A stretch of DNA of 25,641 bases from Candidatus Hodarchaeota archaeon (lineage in GTDB: Archaea > Asgardarchaeota > Lokiarchaeia > Sigyniarchaeales > SOKP01). Below are positions 2,867 through 23,494 of this stretch, piece by piece (within the stretch, counting starts at the first letter, position 1; every line of letters begins with the position of its first letter). Below the pieces are notes generated by a model. It did not search any database, was not told the origin of the DNA, and saw only the letters and a program-made list of their open reading frames with translations. The DNA lies in the NCBI GenBank assembly GCA_048887225.1, contig JBHLJY010000025.1, positions 1,371 through 27,011 on the forward strand, given 5' to 3'. Made by a program: the position numbers and the translations under genes.

Positions 2867-4786
2867 TTATAATAATCTCATCTTAAATTCTTCTATTTCT
2901 TCAAATATTTCTTCTCTTTCCTTTTGACTAATAATAGGTGCCAATTGTTCTTTATATTTATTAATTAGACTTCTCATTTTATGCAACGTAACGGAAAAGC
3001 CTCTTTTCTCTAAAATAAGGTCAGCGATTTTTTGTAATTCGTTACTAAATTCTTCGCCTGTAGCTGTTTTTAATCTTTGAATTAATAAGTTAAACGCATT
3101 ATTAATTTGCATTCCTAATTCATCTCCAGGTTTTGGTTGAATATTTGATACAAAATTGTCTTGAGTTGATTCAGTTGTTTGCGTCTCAACAGAACCAACT
3201 GGAGATTCATAAGCAAATGGAATTTTTTGGGCTTCTGTTTTTTCAATATGGGGCATTTTCTGAGGTGGTACTTTTATTTTTGCGGATTTTTTTTTTTCGT
3301 TGGTCGATACTGTTTCACCACTCGCAGTAGCCCAAGTTGCTTCGAGTATGGGGGTTAATATGGTTATTAAAGGCTTGAAATTACTTCCAATACCAATAAA
3401 ATTCTCCAATGGGTTTTTTGAGTCCTTGTTGACTAAACAAATTATTATTTTATTATTATCTCCTTTCAGAGCAATTCGGTTCTCGTTTTGAATGTTCCTA
3501 AATTCTAAATTTTTTATATTCTTAAAGCTCTTCACCAAGCTATTCATGTGAGCGTCTGATGAGGCTATTTTGATTCTAAGATTTGTAGGAAGATTTTGAA
3601 ATTGTACAATATTTAAAAATTCTTCAATTTTAGGAATGATAAGTATAACTTCTCCTTTTGAATTAGTAATTATATTTGTAATTTCTTCTAATAATCTAGA
3701 TTTGCTTTTAATTAACCAAAGATCATCAATACTCATTTTTTCAGAATAGATGCTTTTATTTTCAAATTGGTGTATTATACTTTCCATAAGTTTGCTCAAT
3801 CCTGAAAATTGATTCATAGAATCATGAATAATAGAATCTATATTTTTTAATACAAGATTTTCTGCTTTTTGTAAATTACTTTTAAGGCTTTCCTTTTTCT
3901 TTACTATCATTTTCTGAAGTTTATTCATTATTGCCTCAAAATTACTTATTACATTTAGATATAATAATTTGAAATCGTTTACATATTGGAAGCTCTCTTT
4001 AATTTTAGTTTCAATTGGCTCTATGGTTATTTTTTCAATGCTCTCTTCAATTTTTTTAAATTCTTCTTGAATTGATTTTTTTAAATGTAAAATTAAATCT
4101 TCTAACCTCTTTTGTATCTCTGCTTTAAATAGATCTTCAATAATATTAATAACTTCCCCTTCCTTTTTCTTGAGTTCTACTACTTTTATTTTATCAATTA
4201 TGTTATATTTTAGTTTTGGTAGCTCTTTTAATAAAGTTGTAATTTGTGGAAGAAGAACACTCATAATGTTTTGATAGAAGGCTGGTATCATTTCTTTTAA
4301 TTCAGATAATATCTTTTCAGTTTCTTTAAATTTTTCAATGTCAGCTATAATTTCTTCGACATCCTGTTTTTGAATCAAGGCATCTTCTGAGAAATCATTA
4401 AAGATATCTTGAAATTGATTGTAAATGGAATCTATTTCAATTACTTCACTTTCCTCAAAAATCCGATCTAATGAATTTAACATCGATTTATGAATAATTT
4501 CTTGGATATTATTCAAATTAGAGGGAAGATTTAAATAATAATCTAAAATAGATTTAATTGGAGGAATAATCATATAGTGAACAAGAATTTCAGGTTTTCT
4601 TGGTGTTATTTGAACCATTAAATCATGATCAATAAGCTCATCAACAATATTTTTAAAATCATCAGGAGATAAATCAGAAACTAGGGAATATAATTCATTA
4701 TAAGTTAATGGTGATTTTAAGAAACATTCATTGTAAATTTTAATAGCTTCATCTGAGAGTTTTAGTTGTTTTAAAAATTCTTCCAT
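2867..4786 (-). CDS. TrmB-like winged-HTH protein with long helical/coiled-coil spacer, TrmB effector/PLD-like alpha-beta domain and small C-terminal helical domain
   Basis: N-terminus 'LKLSDEAIKIY...LTYNEL...IVDELIDHDLM...HYMIIPP' matches the TrmB HTH pattern. About 270 aa of amphipathic helices follow, then 'LWLIKS...ITNIITNSKGEVILIIP', which resembles the start of the TrmB C-terminal domain. Confidence 0.6.
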   Translation of the reverse strand: MEEFLKQLKLSDEAIKIYNECFLKSPLTYNELYSLVSDLSPDDFKNIVDELIDHDLMVQITPRKPEILVHYMIIPPIKSILDYYLNLPSNLNNIQEIIHKSMLNSLDRIFEESEVIEIDSIYNQFQDIFNDFSEDALIQKQDVEEIIADIEKFKETEKILSELKEMIPAFYQNIMSVLLPQITTLLKELPKLKYNIIDKIKVVELKKKEGEVINIIEDLFKAEIQKRLEDLILHLKKSIQEEFKKIEESIEKITIEPIETKIKESFQYVNDFKLLYLNVISNFEAIMNKLQKMIVKKKESLKSNLQKAENLVLKNIDSIIHDSMNQFSGLSKLMESIIHQFENKSIYSEKMSIDDLWLIKSKSRLLEEITNIITNSKGEVILIIPKIEEFLNIVQFQNLPTNLRIKIASSDAHMNSLVKSFKNIKNLEFRNIQNENRIALKGDNNKIIICLVNKDSKNPLENFIGIGSNFKPLITILTPILEATWATASGETVSTNEKKKSAKIKVPPQKMPHIEKTEAQKIPFAYESPVGSVETQTTESTQDNFVSNIQPKPGDELGMQINNAFNLLIQRLKTATGEEFSNELQKIADLILEKRGFSVTLHKMRSLINKYKEQLAPIISQKEREEIFEEIEEFKMRLL

Positions 4787-14942: not shown

Positions 14943-15086
14943 TTATAAGCACATCGAAAAAAATAATTAATTTCCATTTAGATTTTTTTAATTTTTAAGG
15001 TAAGAAAATTGATCCAATAAATATTTTAGCATTAAAAAATTCTAATACTATAATTAATAAGATAACAAAAAGAGAGAATTAGAAAA

Positions 15087-15317
15087 TTGCCACGATGCCC
15101 AGAGTGTGCTGGCGTAATGAAATTTCAACCGTCAATTAAGAAATTAGTCTGTAAATCCTGCGGATTATCATTATCGAGAGCTGAATTAGATGACTATTGG
15201 AAAAAGATCAGATCCCAAAATACTTCTGATGAAGATGATTTCCACCGACAAAAAAGCCGTCGCAAAGAATGGTTGGAATGGTACAGTAAATCTAAATCAG
15301 AGAAAGAGAAATATTAA
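15087..15317 (+). CDS. Small zinc-ribbon protein
   Basis: CPECAG...CKSCG followed by a charged helical tail (RRKEWLEWY). The TTG start shares its leader with abfD. Confidence 0.75.
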   Translation: MPRCPECAGVMKFQPSIKKLVCKSCGLSLSRAELDDYWKKIRSQNTSDEDDFHRQKSRRKEWLEWYSKSKSEKEKY

Positions 15318-15408
15318 AGTTATATAATCCCTTTCGGGGAAAATTTTTATTAGTTAGTTAATTTTCTTCTTTCTAACACTATTTTTTCTAAAAATGAAAT
15401 CTTAATAA

Positions 15409-16602
15409 TTAGCTTCCAAACTTTTTTTCAAATATATCGTCTAATAACTCAATAAGTTTCGAAGCTGGTATATCTAATAAAGTAATTTGTAAATGTCTAC
15501 CACGTTGGGCTTCTTCAATTCTAACCGTTTTTGATGCAATTATTTTAAGTTGATTTAATTGACGAACATATTTTCTAAAACTCATTTTCACATGAGATTC
15601 AATTGAAAAATTTTCACAGGCAACTAAATATTCTTCATAGGCATCATCTACTAATGTAAACGGCTCATCTTTATTTATCAAACATTTTACAATTCCATAT
15701 AAAGCAAGGAGTTCTTGTTCGTTTAATTGGTCAACAATATCTCCTCTAAAAGTTGGATAAACTTCATTCGAAGCAGCTCTAACTATATCAGGAGTTATCG
15801 AATTTAATCCCTCTTTATCAACATATAATCCACATTTTCGCAATATTTCTATACCATGCCTCATATTTTTATTTTCAACGACAATTTGAGCAATCATAGT
15901 CAATAAATCATCGTCAATGACATTATCCTTAAATGCAAGCTCGCTTCTATATTGTAAAATTTGCATAGATTCCTCAAAATCATAAGGTTCAAGTTTTATT
16001 TTTTCGTTTAATCTGCTCAGAATTCTTTCAGTTTCAATTCTCATCCAATCTTTTATTCTTGAAACTAATAATATTGAAAGTCTTGCGTTTTGATGACCAA
16101 ATGTTTCGGCAATATCAAGAAAAGCTAAGACGTCTTCGGATTTTAGAAGATGAACCTCATCTATTATTAAAAACATGTATCCCTTATTTCTAACAAGTTG
16201 CGTTAGAATTAATTTCAATGCCTCATCATCTGAAAATCCCCTTCCAGAGCCATGTGTATATTTTGCCAATAATTCTCTAATAATTTTACTTTTAGATCTA
16301 AAATTAATACAATTATAGTATTCTATGAAAAGGTTGACATCCTTCTCAATTGCTATAGTTCTGAAATTTTTTCCGAAATATCTCGCTGTGACTGTTTTTC
16401 CAACTCCTCCCTTTCCTAGTAATAAACAATTTATACTAGGAGGTTCAGGTTCATCTAAAATTCTCCTAAAATTGTAAATTAAAGTATTAATAGTTTCATC
16501 ACGGGAGTATAACTTTTCTGGTACATAACTTAAGTCAAGAGAACTCGCTTGTTTAAAAACAGATTTTTTTATGAATTGTGCTCGAAATTCATCCTCGTCC
16601 AT
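15409..16602 (-). CDS. cdc6: Orc1/Cdc6 replication initiator AAA+ ATPase
   Basis: 'LSYVPEKLYSRD', Walker A GKGGVGKT, 'YYNC', Walker B IIDEVH, 'RILSRL', 'EPYD...ILQYR', sensor-2 region 'NMRHGIEILR' and a C-terminal winged helix with 'RGR'. Confidence 0.93.
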   Translation of the reverse strand: MDEDEFRAQFIKKSVFKQASSLDLSYVPEKLYSRDETINTLIYNFRRILDEPEPPSINCLLLGKGGVGKTVTARYFGKNFRTIAIEKDVNLFIEYYNCINFRSKSKIIRELLAKYTHGSGRGFSDDEALKLILTQLVRNKGYMFLIIDEVHLLKSEDVLAFLDIAETFGHQNARLSILLVSRIKDWMRIETERILSRLNEKIKLEPYDFEESMQILQYRSELAFKDNVIDDDLLTMIAQIVVENKNMRHGIEILRKCGLYVDKEGLNSITPDIVRAASNEVYPTFRGDIVDQLNEQELLALYGIVKCLINKDEPFTLVDDAYEEYLVACENFSIESHVKMSFRKYVRQLNQLKIIASKTVRIEEAQRGRHLQITLLDIPASKLIELLDDIFEKKFGS

Positions 16603-16761
16603 GACAAATCGTAGGATTTTTTTTATATTTATCTCGTATAAGTAAATATATTACATTTTAAGTTTAAATTTTCTTATACTTTTAAGTTAATAAGGAAATA
16701 TAAAAAAAATTGAAATAAATGGATATAAACTAATCAATTACTATATAATTATACTTTATAT

Positions 16762-17691
16762 TTATTCATTTAAATCCTCGATTTTATTTAGAGGATGCAT
16801 TGCATTATACGATTGTTTTAATTTAGATATATCATTTTTAGCATAAATTCGGGTTGTATTGGGACTTGAATGTCCTAATATATCTTGTAATTCGCTTATA
16901 TCCATACCTGAGCGTCTAAGATGAGTAGCTCCTGTATGTCTAAACACGTGAGGGGTCACTATCTTTGAATCTGGAAATTCACACCTGATTTTTATGTTTT
17001 TTATATCTTCCTGTACAATTCGCGGATTTAATTTATGCAGTCTTGTATTTACTAGTAAAAAATCATCAGAACTATATATGAATCTACTTTGCAGGTACTC
17101 TTTAATAAGTTCTAAAGTTTTATCATCAACTGGAACCATTCTTTCTTTATTCCCCTTTCCTCTAAGTCGAACGTATCCTTGCTTAAAATCAATATCTTTA
17201 ATTTTAATGTTACAAAGTTCACTTACTCGAGCCATAGTAGAATACAACAACCTTATAATTAAATACTGACGTTGACTTTTTTCAGATCTTAATTGCTTAT
17301 CATCTTTTAAAATTGTGAAAATTTTTTTTATATCTAAAATATCAAGAAATTTAGGGAGATTTTCTTCTGTTTTAATTTTTGGACTTTGGATTCTATCCAT
17401 AGGATTCTTTTTAACAAACCTATTGACGACTAAAAATTTAAAAAAGGATCGTAAAGATGCTATTTTTCTAGCAATCGATTTCTTAGTATAGTTTTTTTCC
17501 TTGAGAGTTTTTAAAAATAACCTAATTCTTTGACGTAAGAATGAAGAATTAACGCTAATATCTCCTACAGAGTTAATAAATTTTTGAAGATCGTATTTAT
17601 AAGCTTGAATTGTAGAAGAAGCGCACCCTTCTTCAATTTCCTTAGCAAATAAAAATTCTTCGATGAAATTTGAGATTTTCTTTTTTCCCAT
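16762..17691 (-). CDS. xerA: XerA/XerC/D-type tyrosine recombinase
   Basis: SAM-like N-domain 'STIQAYKYDL...SIARKIASLRSFFKFL...NP'; intact catalytic set R (ARVSEL), K (GKGNKER), HVFRH, LGH and Y (TRIY). Confidence 0.9.
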   Translation of the reverse strand: MGKKKISNFIEEFLFAKEIEEGCASSTIQAYKYDLQKFINSVGDISVNSSFLRQRIRLFLKTLKEKNYTKKSIARKIASLRSFFKFLVVNRFVKKNPMDRIQSPKIKTEENLPKFLDILDIKKIFTILKDDKQLRSEKSQRQYLIIRLLYSTMARVSELCNIKIKDIDFKQGYVRLRGKGNKERMVPVDDKTLELIKEYLQSRFIYSSDDFLLVNTRLHKLNPRIVQEDIKNIKIRCEFPDSKIVTPHVFRHTGATHLRRSGMDISELQDILGHSSPNTTRIYAKNDISKLKQSYNAMHPLNKIEDLNE

Positions 17692-17780: not shown

Positions 17781-18725
17781 TTATTCTTTTTTTAATTGCC
17801 GAACGTATTTATTAGCATTTATTCCAGCGCGGGCACCCTCTGATGTTGCGAATACCACTTGGTATAAACCACCAGTAACATCTCCTGCTGCAAAAACTCC
17901 CTTTACATTCGTTTTCTGCTCCATATCAACCTTAATATTACCTCTTTCATCCAATTCAATGCCGGCCTTCTTAAAGATTGAATTTGAAGGTAGATGAGAC
18001 AAAATAAAAAGGCAATCCAATTCAAATGTCTTAATTTCGTTTGGTTTATTTGGATCCGTAGAACTACAAATAATCTTTTGAACAATACCTTGATTATTTC
18101 CAACGACTTCTATAATTTGATATTTATCAAATACTTTAATATTATTATCTTTGACCTCTTTAATTTTATCAGGCAAATCTTCGATTCCTACTTCTGTAAT
18201 AATGTTTACAATACAACCCATTTGCTGTAAAATTAACGCCTCTTCCAAAGCTTCTTCGTCGTTTCCATAGATAAATACCACTCTATCTTTATATAAAGGG
18301 CCATCGCATAATGCACAATATGATACACCAAAACCATTTAGTGCTTCTTCCCCTTTTATCGATTCTTTACGTAGCCCCCTTCCAGTGGCGATAATTACAG
18401 CATCAGCAGTAATATTTGCAGTTCTAGTAGAAATCATATTTGACCCCATCCCTATAATTAGTGATATCACATCTCCTTTAATCAATCTAACGGTTTCATG
18501 GCTCTGTGCGTGGTCTCTAAAACTTTTCAAGAGCTCTGGACCTGTCATCAATTCATAACCGGGATAATTCATTATTTCATTAGGATACTCTAAAGCTGAT
18601 TCTTGTTTTCCATCAAGAATAAGTACATCTCGTTGCGCTCTTCCACAATAGATCGCAGCACTACACCCTGCGGGGCCAGATCCTATTATTAATATTTCAC
18701 AATTATATTGATCTAATTGTTCCAT
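17781..18725 (-). CDS. trxB: Thioredoxin reductase-like FAD disulfide oxidoreductase with degenerate NAD(P)H-binding motif
   Basis: GSGPAG FAD motif, 'VIIATG', 'GVSYCALCDG' redox motif and 'TNVKGVFAAGDV'. ATG at 18725 (MEQLDQY) is more likely than GTG at 18764. Confidence 0.88.
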   Translation of the reverse strand: MEQLDQYNCEILIIGSGPAGCSAAIYCGRAQRDVLILDGKQESALEYPNEIMNYPGYELMTGPELLKSFRDHAQSHETVRLIKGDVISLIIGMGSNMISTRTANITADAVIIATGRGLRKESIKGEEALNGFGVSYCALCDGPLYKDRVVFIYGNDEEALEEALILQQMGCIVNIITEVGIEDLPDKIKEVKDNNIKVFDKYQIIEVVGNNQGIVQKIICSSTDPNKPNEIKTFELDCLFILSHLPSNSIFKKAGIELDERGNIKVDMEQKTNVKGVFAAGDVTGGLYQVVFATSEGARAGINANKYVRQLKKE

Positions 18726-18785
18726 TAAGATTGACCTTTTATTGGAAACCTGCTTTAATATCACTTTGTTTAATAATATTGAGAT

Positions 18786-18977
18786 AATACGATTTTTAAT
18801 AAATCGAATAATGTATTATAGGAATATTTAATACGATGGTATATATGGTTTTCGATTTAGAGAAAGATGTAAGATCTCTTTCGAATTATCGAAATAGAAG
18901 ATATCCTAATATTACATTTTACTAATTGTCGAAAACGATCTTACATCATTCGATTTATAGAAAGGTGTGTTATCTCT
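18786..18977. repeat. Cluster of iterated direct and inverted repeats in the long intergenic region upstream of trxB-xerA-cdc6
   Basis: A 29-bp direct repeat at 18851-18879 and 18949-18977 (24/29 identical); perfect 11-bp inverted repeat GATGTAAGATC (18866-18876) / GATCTTACATC (18937-18947); TTCGATTTA also inverted at 18800-18808. Confidence 0.8.
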
Positions 18978-19220
18978 GTATTATATTTTGAGTAATTTTT
19001 GGTATATTATCCAGATATATGCTTTTTTTACTGAAACAAAGATTTCACGGTTTCTCCTATACATCTGCATAATACTATAATTTATAATACTCGTTTAAAA
19101 AGTCAGCAGCCCAATCTAAATTTTAAATAATTAAAATTATTTAAAGAAAAATTTTTTCTATAAAATTGATTATGAAATTTATCTACTAAAAAATAGTTTA
19201 ATATTACCTTGCGCAAAACA

Positions 19221-20795
19221 ATGTATAAATTGAGAAAATCTGAATGGTTTAAGGCAGTTGATAAGTGGGAACTTCTTATTGCTCTTAGACTTTATATTCT
19301 TGTTTTCTTAATTATCTATCCTCTAATTTATGTCGTACTTCTTCTTAGATATATTTCTCCCGTTGGCATATTGATATTAGGAATGTCTATTTGGCTTATT
19401 TTAAAATATGTACTTTTCGAATCAAGAAAGAGATCTATACGATTTATTAAAACATTATCTATTATCGTAGGTATAATTTATGTTAATTTCGTGTTCAGTC
19501 TAATAATCAATATTATTCATGCTAATTTAGCTAATATTTTTTTAGCTTTGGGTATATGTTTAGGTTCTGCTATATATTTTTTAGTTGTAATTTTGCGAAA
19601 ACTATTTAGAGGAATAAATTCAAGTTTAACCTTAAAAAAACTAAAGTGGTCAAAAAGAATAAAGAAAAGTAATTTTTGGCGTAGGATTTTTAGACATTCA
19701 TTAGTTTTTTGGTTATTAATTTCAATTAACCTATTATTTCTTCCTTATCCAATTTACATTCAACAATATACAACTTCAAATTATATATATCGAAAGAATA
19801 AATCACCTATAACCGAATTTGGAATCTGGACTTATGGGCAATCGCTAGACGATGATAAAAAAGGGGATCCTGAATATGTGGATAATAAAACATTAAAATT
19901 GCTTGGAGATGCGGGCATATATTTTATATACGGGATAAGTGAGCCAAAATTTGATAGTAAATTTTTAAGTAGGATTGGCAGATGTAAACAATTTGGTATT
20001 GAAGTTCACTTATCAATAGGTCCTAAGGATTGGAGCTATGCCAACGTCTGGTCATTTAAAGACCTTAAGGACGAAATTGAGGATATCCTCGCTTCATGCA
20101 AAGCGTATAATTTATTAGGAGATCCAATAACGACTATTGTATATGATATGGAAACAATAGTAGATACTCCATTCCCCCTATTTGGTTTCAATCTTGATTA
20201 CATTAATAAATTGAAAGAATATTATGAGATTCAAAAGGATTTTATTAAATTCAATGATTTTATAAAAATAGAATATGACCTCGATATTCGAATTACTACA
20301 GATATATTTCAAGGCGTCGATTTTAATGATGGAGACGATGACCTTAAAATTTTATTGGGATTGATTGATGATGCAAATGCAGATATGAGCTACATGGTGT
20401 ACCGACGCAACACTTTCGGACAAAATCAAATTCTCGATCATTTCAGATTTTTAAGAGATGGCGATACAATAATATTAAATGCTTGGAAATCCCAAGGATA
20501 CCTTTGCTGGGGAGATATTGACTGCGCTATTAGGGATTGTAGACTTGTTTTAGGCTATCCTGATAAAACTTTTAAATTAGAAATCTGGGAGTTATATCAT
20601 TTTCTTGTAACATACGGAGATGAAGGTTTAGAAAATTTGGTTGAAGCTATATGTGAAATTGATAGTTCTGAATGGCCTCCGATTATTGTAAGTAATCATT
20701 TTCCGTTCTCACCCTATTGGGATATTGTATTTATCGGGATAATAATGATAGATTTATATAGTCCTCTTTTTAGGATTTTGTATAGCGCCTATTGA
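19221..20795 (+). CDS. Membrane protein: about 5 N-terminal TM helices, soluble alpha/beta (possibly TIM-barrel-like) domain and hydrophobic C-terminal segment
   Basis: Long ORF with hydrophobic segments in the first ~180 aa, then alternating strand/helix motifs (FGIWTY, YFIYGI, IEVHLSI, TTIVYDME, IRITTD, SYMVY). ATG at 19221 or TTG at 19209. Confidence 0.7.
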   Translation: MYKLRKSEWFKAVDKWELLIALRLYILVFLIIYPLIYVVLLLRYISPVGILILGMSIWLILKYVLFESRKRSIRFIKTLSIIVGIIYVNFVFSLIINIIHANLANIFLALGICLGSAIYFLVVILRKLFRGINSSLTLKKLKWSKRIKKSNFWRRIFRHSLVFWLLISINLLFLPYPIYIQQYTTSNYIYRKNKSPITEFGIWTYGQSLDDDKKGDPEYVDNKTLKLLGDAGIYFIYGISEPKFDSKFLSRIGRCKQFGIEVHLSIGPKDWSYANVWSFKDLKDEIEDILASCKAYNLLGDPITTIVYDMETIVDTPFPLFGFNLDYINKLKEYYEIQKDFIKFNDFIKIEYDLDIRITTDIFQGVDFNDGDDDLKILLGLIDDANADMSYMVYRRNTFGQNQILDHFRFLRDGDTIILNAWKSQGYLCWGDIDCAIRDCRLVLGYPDKTFKLEIWELYHFLVTYGDEGLENLVEAICEIDSSEWPPIIVSNHFPFSPYWDIVFIGIIMIDLYSPLFRILYSAY

Positions 20796-23166: not shown

Positions 23167-23494
23167 GGACGCTTGAGAAATATACCCACCCTTTTGTCCT
23201 ATTCTCGTCGCCGAGATATAGTTGAGGCATCAAACTAAGCGGTCTACCTAAAACTCGTTCCAAGAACTCATTGTTTTCATTTGGCCTTGCTCCGAGGTTT
23301 TAGCGCGTTCCAACCATTCCCTATCATAATTTCTTTGGCTTATTTCCAATTCATTAATATACATAAAAGGGCAGTGTCGTTTCAGTTGCTAAAATACGGT
23401 TTTCACCGTAGTAGTTATCTACTCCTCGCTTGGAATGAGGGGTGAGGTTCCTCAGCGGGTCGAACCCACCGTCAGCCTCATTTCTCACTCGTCC
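23167..23494 (-). ncRNA. rnpB: RNase P RNA (archaeal type A-like)
   Basis: Minus strand: P1 GGACG..UGAGAAAU / AUUUCUCA..CGUCC; P2 GAGGC/GCCUC; CR-I GAGGAACCUCACCC pairs with CR-V ACAAAAGGGUGGGUA (P4); P6 UUCCAAG/CUUGGAA; P7 CGAGG/CCUCG; P8 AGUAG-AUAA-CUACU; P9 ACGGU-GAAA-ACCGU; CR-II GCAACUGAAAC; CR-III UGGAAC; GGAGCAAG; CR-IV UAGUUUGAUG. Locally higher GC. Confidence 0.93.

Follow-up and report, generated by a model that had tools for sequence, protein, structure and literature searches.

Archaeal regulators of the Lrp/AsnC type bind operator arrays, for example that of Sulfolobus Ss-LrpB, which consists of three regularly spaced 15-bp boxes. ORBs of archaeal replication origins share a conserved core, the dyad TTCC ... 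GAA, and in Pyrococcus the ORB clusters span 5 kb around cdc6 (PMC1904270). The known archaeal dif site has the form WTKDSMTATAA-N6-TTATATSHMAA (PMC4640148). For Asgard archaea, our literature search found no description of replication origins, dif sites or promoter control. Here we describe a set of interlocked repeats that is the fast-changing part of a single-copy non-coding DNA module of about 300 bp (approximately 18795-19075), present in three Lokiarchaeial genera. Our best, tentative reading of this module is a phased operator array that governs promoters within or adjacent to the conserved core.

The window, i.e. the whole analysed stretch of 25,641 nucleotides, is archaeal by its RNase P RNA and has a G+C content of about 30%. 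The repeats lie in a 444-bp spacer between the gene of a thioredoxin-reductase-like (TrxR-like) flavoprotein (17781-18764, minus strand) and the gene of a 528-aa membrane protein (19209-20795, plus strand). The latter protein has no Pfam match, and the gene next after it encodes an H+-pyrophosphatase (H+-PPase). For the TrxR-like ORF, the listed GTG (18764) probably lies too far upstream; translation more likely begins with the ATG at 18725, which has AAAGGT ahead of it and aligns with the 314-aa orthologues. The features of the locus are collected in Table 1.

Table 1. Coordinates of the module, its parts and the relevant genes in the window.
Feature	Position	Strand	Remarks
Cdc6/Orc1	15409-16602	-	Same strand as XerA and the TrxR-like gene
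XerA-type recombinase	16762-17691	-	Behind the TrxR-like gene, same strand
TrxR-like flavoprotein, box-side neighbour	17781-18764	-	Heads the trxR-xerA-cdc6 run
Outermost box copy	18795-18818	-	Minus strand reads TAATACATTATTCGATTTATTAAA; dyad 18795-18808
Box copy	18851-18876	-	Dyad TTCGATTTAGAGAA (18851-18864), then head GATGTAAGATC; 18/24 matches on minus strand
Best dyad, dyad only	18880-18893		TTCGAATTATCGAA, 5-4-5 palindrome
Box 2, weak copy	18910-18933	+	TATTACATTTTACTAATTGTCGAA; offset -122, kept in nearly all orthologues
Box 1, reference copy	18939-18962	+	TCTTACATCATTCGATTTATAGAA; invariant TTCGAT and TAGAA columns
Invariant block	18979-18992		TATTATATTTTGAG; minus strand AAAATATAATA, resembling BRE+TATA
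Outer dyad, left arm	19003-19022		TATTATCCAGATATAT; from reverse-strand self-matches of model positions 60-137 and alignments
Palindrome	19030-19049		7-8 bp arms, 6-bp spacer; consensus (T)CGTGAAA-N6-TTTCACG(A)
Outer dyad, right arm	19058-19075		TATACATCTGCATAATAC; the conserved module ends here in genus g1
A+T-rich tract (90%)	19117-19208		Precedes the 528-aa membrane-protein gene; outside the conserved module
Archaeal RNase P RNA	23170-23491	-	Rfam, 131.8 bits, full length

The repeats reported by the initial annotation were recovered. The copies of the direct repeat (18851-18879 and 18949-18977, 98 bp apart) are identical at 24 of 29 positions, and the inverted arms (18866-18884 and 18929-18947) can be extended to 35 nt (18850-18884 and 18929-18963, 77%). 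The element TAAATCGAA is found at 18800, and TAATACGAT occurs at 18785 and 18829, which are its only two copies within the window. The tract ahead of the membrane-protein gene is indeed very AT-rich, compared with 69.5% A+T for the window. A further inverted pair of 43 nt (18773-18815 and 18942-18984, 79%) had not been noted before. In 60 dinucleotide shuffles of the 444-bp spacer, inverted matches as long as 43 and 35 nt were never reached, and a 29-nt direct match was reached once.

All these interlocked repeats reduce to one box of 22-24 bp, composed of a TTACAT head and a 14-bp dyad TTCGA-N4-TCGAA (5-4-5 geometry with an A/T centre). Four or five copies of the box are located at 18795-18962, phased with a spacing of 29-40 bp, and the genome contains no other box cluster. 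The arms and the "16-bp flanks" that had been taken for terminal inverted repeats with a long target-site duplication are this same box repeated in opposite orientations. The outermost copy agrees with the reference box at 19 of 24 positions, is placed at offset -237 relative to the palindrome and supplies the left arm of the 43-nt inverted repeat; the copy at 18851-18876 combines the first copy of the direct repeat with the left inverted arm. The genome has just three TTCGA-N4-TCGAA sites, among them the dyad at 18880-18893. When up to two mismatches are allowed, the 14-mer TTCGATTTATAGAA matches 153 places in the 3.27-Mb genome; four of these fall within 170 bp at the module, while other clusters contain at most two. 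Both genome-wide copies of GATCTTACATC are at the module. Two further candidates were set aside. Near the second cdc6 paralogue, at a distance of 3.5 kb, a TTCGA-N4-TCGAA site stands alone, and the shared 13-mer ATATTACATTTTA upstream of cdc6 was treated as chance because it is not conserved in relatives.

Orthologues of the module were searched for using BLAST and a sequence-only model of 141 positions. One strong copy was found in each of G000, G002, G005, G006 and G009, which belong to the same genus, and in all five genomes of genus g8; the copy in G013 (genus g5) is weaker but syntenic. The metagenome scan added eight more orthologues on contigs. Neither search found the module in G001, G003, G004, G007 and G008 of the same genus or in the large genera g11 and g2, and no analogous repeats were seen at the G001 locus. 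Viral contigs yielded 16 chance matches to the box pattern, none of which fits the profile of the element, and no homologue. The module is conserved in part of genus g1 and in genera g8 and g5. The unit itself occurs once in the 3.27-Mb genome, and the suggested BLAST count of copies gave a single syntenic copy per genome.

About 215 bp are conserved across genera whose proteins are 59-74% identical. The conservation is block-wise, and the spacers between the blocks vary in sequence and are constant in length, a pattern like that of a protein-binding region. Box 1 is followed by 18 variable bases, the invariant block TATTAYATTTTGA, a T-run and a nested dyad, in which CGTGAAA-N6-TTTCACG stands between an outer arm (TTATCCAGATATAT type) and its mirrored counterpart. 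The core is the TATA-like block together with this nested dyad around the 8-6-8 palindrome. The TATA-like block is 40 bp from the start of box 1, and the distance from that start to the palindrome equals 92-93 bp in every orthologue. The palindrome spacer is 6 bp long in every orthologue found, and the inner 7-8 bp of each arm are symmetric. In this genome the palindrome is degenerate (ACTGAAA CAAAGA TTTCACG), and its left arm is degenerate in G000 and G002. G009 and L176 lack the A+T-rich tract, and the gene there begins some 80 bp past the core.

The number and orientation of boxes upstream of box 1 are variable. The array comprises two minus and two plus boxes in G000, four minus and two plus boxes in g8, four plus boxes in G005, and 4.7 tandem 40-bp units in G006. 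Such free change suits orientation-tolerant dyad sites. Boxes 2 and 1 together make up a 75-bp unit, and the minimal part retained in L198 is the same unit. In G016 this unit is duplicated with 88% identity (L031:1393-1747 and 3406-3480), and the duplicates flank a 1.7-kb insert with MscL and a 144-aa ORF; the H+-PPase gene of that genome retains the old box array and not the core.

Wherever the module occurs, its place is between H+-PPase and TrxR, which ancestrally are divergent neighbours. In g11 these two genes are divergent neighbours separated by a 299-bp spacer without boxes or palindrome. Seven different contexts were found on the box side (TrxR, a TrxR paralogue, H+-PPase, ORFs of 144, 206 and 133 aa, and a small ORF), and in each of them the gene is oriented outward from the module. 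On the palindrome side, toxin-antitoxin-type genes (HicA, PIN/VapC, RHH/UPF0175) are found in three separate lineages (L029:1218-1675 in G006, L201:10240-10644, and L066:13102-13428 in G013). Besides Cdc6 and XerA, no DNA-binding domains were found in the window or in the orthologous loci, except a weak ribbon-helix-helix match in a probable antitoxin adjoining the module in G013.

Several observations concern the surroundings of cdc6. A small zinc-ribbon ORF (window 15085-15318, plus strand), convergent with cdc6, is conserved in g1, g2 and g11, and a conserved block of the AAATATTTTARCATTAA type (window approximately 15000-15050) precedes it in g1 and g11. A dyad/TATA-like block of the AAGTATAAGAAAATTTAAACTT type upstream of cdc6 (window 16645-16690; also in L138, L139 and L140) is conserved across genera and is probably the cdc6 promoter. 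In the one-contig genome G106, a run of N (L138:11920-12020) is located just downstream of the cdc6/zinc-ribbon pair; therefore something there failed to assemble. Further, three g11 loci (L148, L149, L150) contain a conserved stretch of about 75 nt, some 150-230 bp past a tRNA gene and behind a TATA-like block. It is closed by a terminal stem of about 12 bp (GAAAAAACGCC ... GGCGTTTTTTC) and is possibly an unannotated small RNA.

The module acts as DNA and not as RNA. We consider the array to be a set of DNA-level repeats in a conserved module, which would be bound by protein. The 22-24 bp boxes may serve as sites for a dimeric sequence-specific DNA-binding protein. Several dimers on phased boxes 29-40 bp apart could then assemble into a higher-order complex that keeps a constant distance to the core. 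Transcription under its control would begin at TATA-like elements within or adjoining the core and proceed towards the box-side gene. The palindrome might be a second protein site or an insulating end. Dyad-symmetric phased boxes are present in what appears to be a promoter region, the promoter elements themselves being putative. The invariant columns of the block at 18979-18992 were recovered in orthologue alignments. Read on the minus strand, this block is similar to the BRE/TATA regions that precede the RNase P RNA and tRNA genes in this genome, and so are the ATATAT motifs next to the palindrome. It is a resemblance only, and from the sequence we infer a promoter role for the block; promoter function and the direction of control are likewise predicted for the module as a whole.

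Several facts count against an operator array. No regulator gene adjoins the module in the window or in the orthologous loci, and the boxes have no second target in the genome. The genes downstream of the boxes are unrelated between lineages, which is odd for gene-specific control, and the conservation of about 215 bp across genera exceeds what ordinary promoters keep. Elsewhere in the order the palindrome family is found mostly near gene 3' ends. Moreover, in g8 the palindrome is a sharp homology boundary, which points to recombination.

The strongest rival, and a serious one, is a site for XerA. Here the palindrome would be the crossover core (dif- or att-like) of the single tyrosine recombinase, and the boxes, as a cer/psi-type accessory region, would impose direction in place of FtsK control; we regard this as possible though unlikely. 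The geometry agrees with that of Xer/dif sites (two inverted arms of about 11 bp around a 6-bp spacer), the symmetric part being the inner 7-8 bp. The spacer always has 6 bp and its sequence varies by lineage, whereas the arms do not vary. The boxes are one-sided and at a fixed distance. The xerA gene is 1.1 kb from the module here, 3.5 kb in g5 and 7.6 kb in g8, and this genome has one tyrosine recombinase and one palindrome. In contrast, each arm agrees with the Thermococcales dif consensus (PMC4640148), compared by eye, at only about 6 of 11 positions. A scan of the genome for Thermococcales-type dif sites gave no convincing or better candidate.

The eight aligned g8-type sequences (L041, L040, L031, L042, L259, L201, L198, L226) bear on recombination. 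As far as the right arm of the palindrome, their identity is approximately 100%. The next 30 bp or so can still be recognised despite much greater divergence, after which the sequences continue into four unrelated flanks. There are two left haplotypes, each of which occurs with right flank types a and d. Between these types about 0.7-0.85 kb is replaced, with a methyltransferase gene in one and a PIN-domain gene in the other, and an arm-like half-site is present at the far junction of the replaced segment (L064:11390-11420; L201:10640-10670). The near-identity ending at the right arm, the joining of each haplotype to two of the flanks, the half-site, and the toxin-antitoxin genes on the palindrome side in three lineages all speak for a XerA site. 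Against it, no second full palindrome flanking the g8 inserts was found, and the left arm is degenerate in G000 and G002.

The palindrome belongs to an order-wide family, (T)CGTGAAA-N6-TTTCACG(A), which was surveyed at window 19030-19049 and at loci L092-L152. With at most one mismatch, most genera typically have 8-18 members per genome versus 0-2 for the reversed control. The count is 0-2 in the module-bearing part of this genus and 1-5 in g8; G000 and G049 have one each. The members are intergenic, mostly near gene 3' ends (12 convergent, 17 tandem and 6 divergent). Their spacers are unique within a genome, and the same spacer recurs across genomes, even across families; identical 20-mers, spacer included, are sometimes found in non-homologous contexts of different genomes. 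These last properties, too, fit a recombination site. However, genomes of the order encode one or two tyrosine recombinases, while other genera typically have 8-18 palindromes and dif should be unique. The other palindromes have no boxes, with no enrichment of TCGA boxes near them, and no integrase gene was seen in their vicinity. Two other explanations of the family were dropped: no parS-like clustering near cdc6 was seen in G106 or G108, and, against a REP/RAYT reading, no Y1 transposase was found in five relatives.

The recombinase hypothesis can be extended. The module could be a XerA locus for dimer resolution or cassette exchange, with an 8-6-8 core and a cer/psi-like array giving the directionality that in bacteria comes from FtsK, and the order-wide palindromes with their genome-unique spacers could be further XerA sites for segment swaps. 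We consider this extended form unlikely. To our knowledge, archaea lack FtsK control.

The main idea of the initial annotation was that the module is a chromosomal origin with non-canonical ORB-like boxes bound by Cdc6/Orc1. Of the proposed iterated initiator-binding sites of a new type next to a DUE, one part stands: the sites are iterated, of a binding type and of a new sequence kind, and act as DNA. The initiator and the DUE do not follow, and we find an origin quite improbable. In its favour, the module spacer is the longest near cdc6, on the same contig and at a distance of 2.2 kb here, 6.2 kb in g5 and 8.6 kb in g8, and in Pyrococcus ORB clusters extend over 5 kb around cdc6 (PMC1904270). 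The box is unique and combines a dyad with a one-sided extension as in ORBs, inverted copies occur in G000 and g8, and the genes diverge from the module in the window. The annotation was also right that no canonical ORB is present: a regular-expression scan gave no cluster near either cdc6 gene or elsewhere in the genome, with matches only inside coding sequence. The lack of any canonical cluster also favours this reading.

On the other side, the module is missing in g11, in g2 and in half of the genus (G001-type), despite a conserved trxR-xerA-cdc6 run and Cdc6 identity of 77-81%. Identity of Cdc6 to that of this genome is 77-80% in g11 and g2, 70% in g5 and 59% in g8. The distribution is patchy, because g11 and g2 are closer by Cdc6 than g5 and g8, and the H+-PPase/TrxR spacer of the closer genera lacks the module. 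Such a pattern would fit a dispensable element better than an essential origin. The box dyad TTCGA-N4-TCGAA lacks the TTCC/GAA core of ORBs, and the box motif is at control level in genomes without the module. Only direct copies are found in G005 and G006. In G049 the neighbouring genes are on the same strand, and the gene strand switches at cdc6 and not at the module. The A+T tract proposed as a DUE is not conserved, with only about 80 bp in that place in G009. GC and GC3 skew, computed for 400 kb of G049, follow the gene strand only, with no replication-linked signal; therefore skew neither helps nor hurts the origin reading.

A transcribed RNA element, whether a hairpin leader or a repeat-containing RNA that acts as a protein sponge, is very improbable. 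The regions of G000 and G049 fold better than shuffled sequences (z about -3), the number of repeated motifs varies as in sponge RNAs, and TATA-like blocks are nearby. However, both strands fold equally well (z -3.2 and -3.0 for G000), as inverted repeats in DNA predict, and no fold is seen in the tandem-repeat region of G006 (z +1.0). The consensus structures of 6 and 11 orthologues had energies of -2.9 and -1.8 kcal/mol with 1-2 compensatory pairs, and the suggested check of these two sets revealed no covariation. Changes that break the stem of the small hairpin are uncompensated. Rfam has nothing at the module at gathering or permissive thresholds. The weak consensus structure, the lack of an Rfam family and the unfolded G006 array speak against the hairpin-RNA alternative raised earlier. 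A small protein was also rejected: none of the reading frames stays open across the six aligned orthologues, and the one 29-aa ORF changes frame from genus to genus.

A MITE or transposon scar, or else a centromere-like partition site, is hardly probable at all. A MITE is excluded, although the arms and repeated flanks superficially look like TIRs with a TSD: each genome has one copy in a syntenic place rather than dispersed copies with TIRs and target-site duplications, the boxes cluster nowhere else in the genome, no viral contig carries a fitting element, and five relatives contain no Y1 transposase. As to a partition site, tandem 40-bp units each containing a dyad may recall centromeres of the sopC type, but no ParA/ParB/SegAB-type gene was seen nearby.

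As a defined DNA target, conserved and present in one copy close to cdc6 and xerA, the module lends itself directly to work with recombinant Cdc6, XerA and cell extracts. Should it prove to be no more than a promoter-operator cassette, it would still be this lineage's first candidate regulatory array.

In comparison with archaeal oriC (PMC1904270, PMC4010727), the module likewise presents a unique cluster of 22-24 bp repeats, both direct and inverted, near cdc6 in an A+T-rich spacer. Unlike oriC, its boxes lack the TTCC...GAA core, it is not conserved wherever the initiator is, it may be as far as 8.6 kb from cdc6, and it has no conserved DUE. With the cer/psi sites of bacterial plasmids and archaeal XerA/dif (PMC2958812, PMC4640148) it has several traits in common: a 6-bp spacer between inverted arms, repeated sites that cover about 180 bp on one side and keep a fixed distance, a recombinase gene in the vicinity, and foreign DNA adjoining the site. 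Its arms are unlike those of known dif sites in sequence, and the palindrome is multi-copy in sister genera. The favoured operator array is best compared with those of the Lrp/AsnC type. It differs from them in its TTCGA half-site, 4-bp centre and one-sided TTACAT head, in having no regulator gene beside it, and in being portable between unrelated downstream genes. By analogy, it is similar to them in its palindromic 13-15 bp boxes with an A/T-rich centre and, as with Ss-LrpB, in the presence of several copies about 3-4 helical turns apart (a period of about 40 bp) in what may be a promoter region, a geometry that would be fit for cooperative binding and DNA wrapping.
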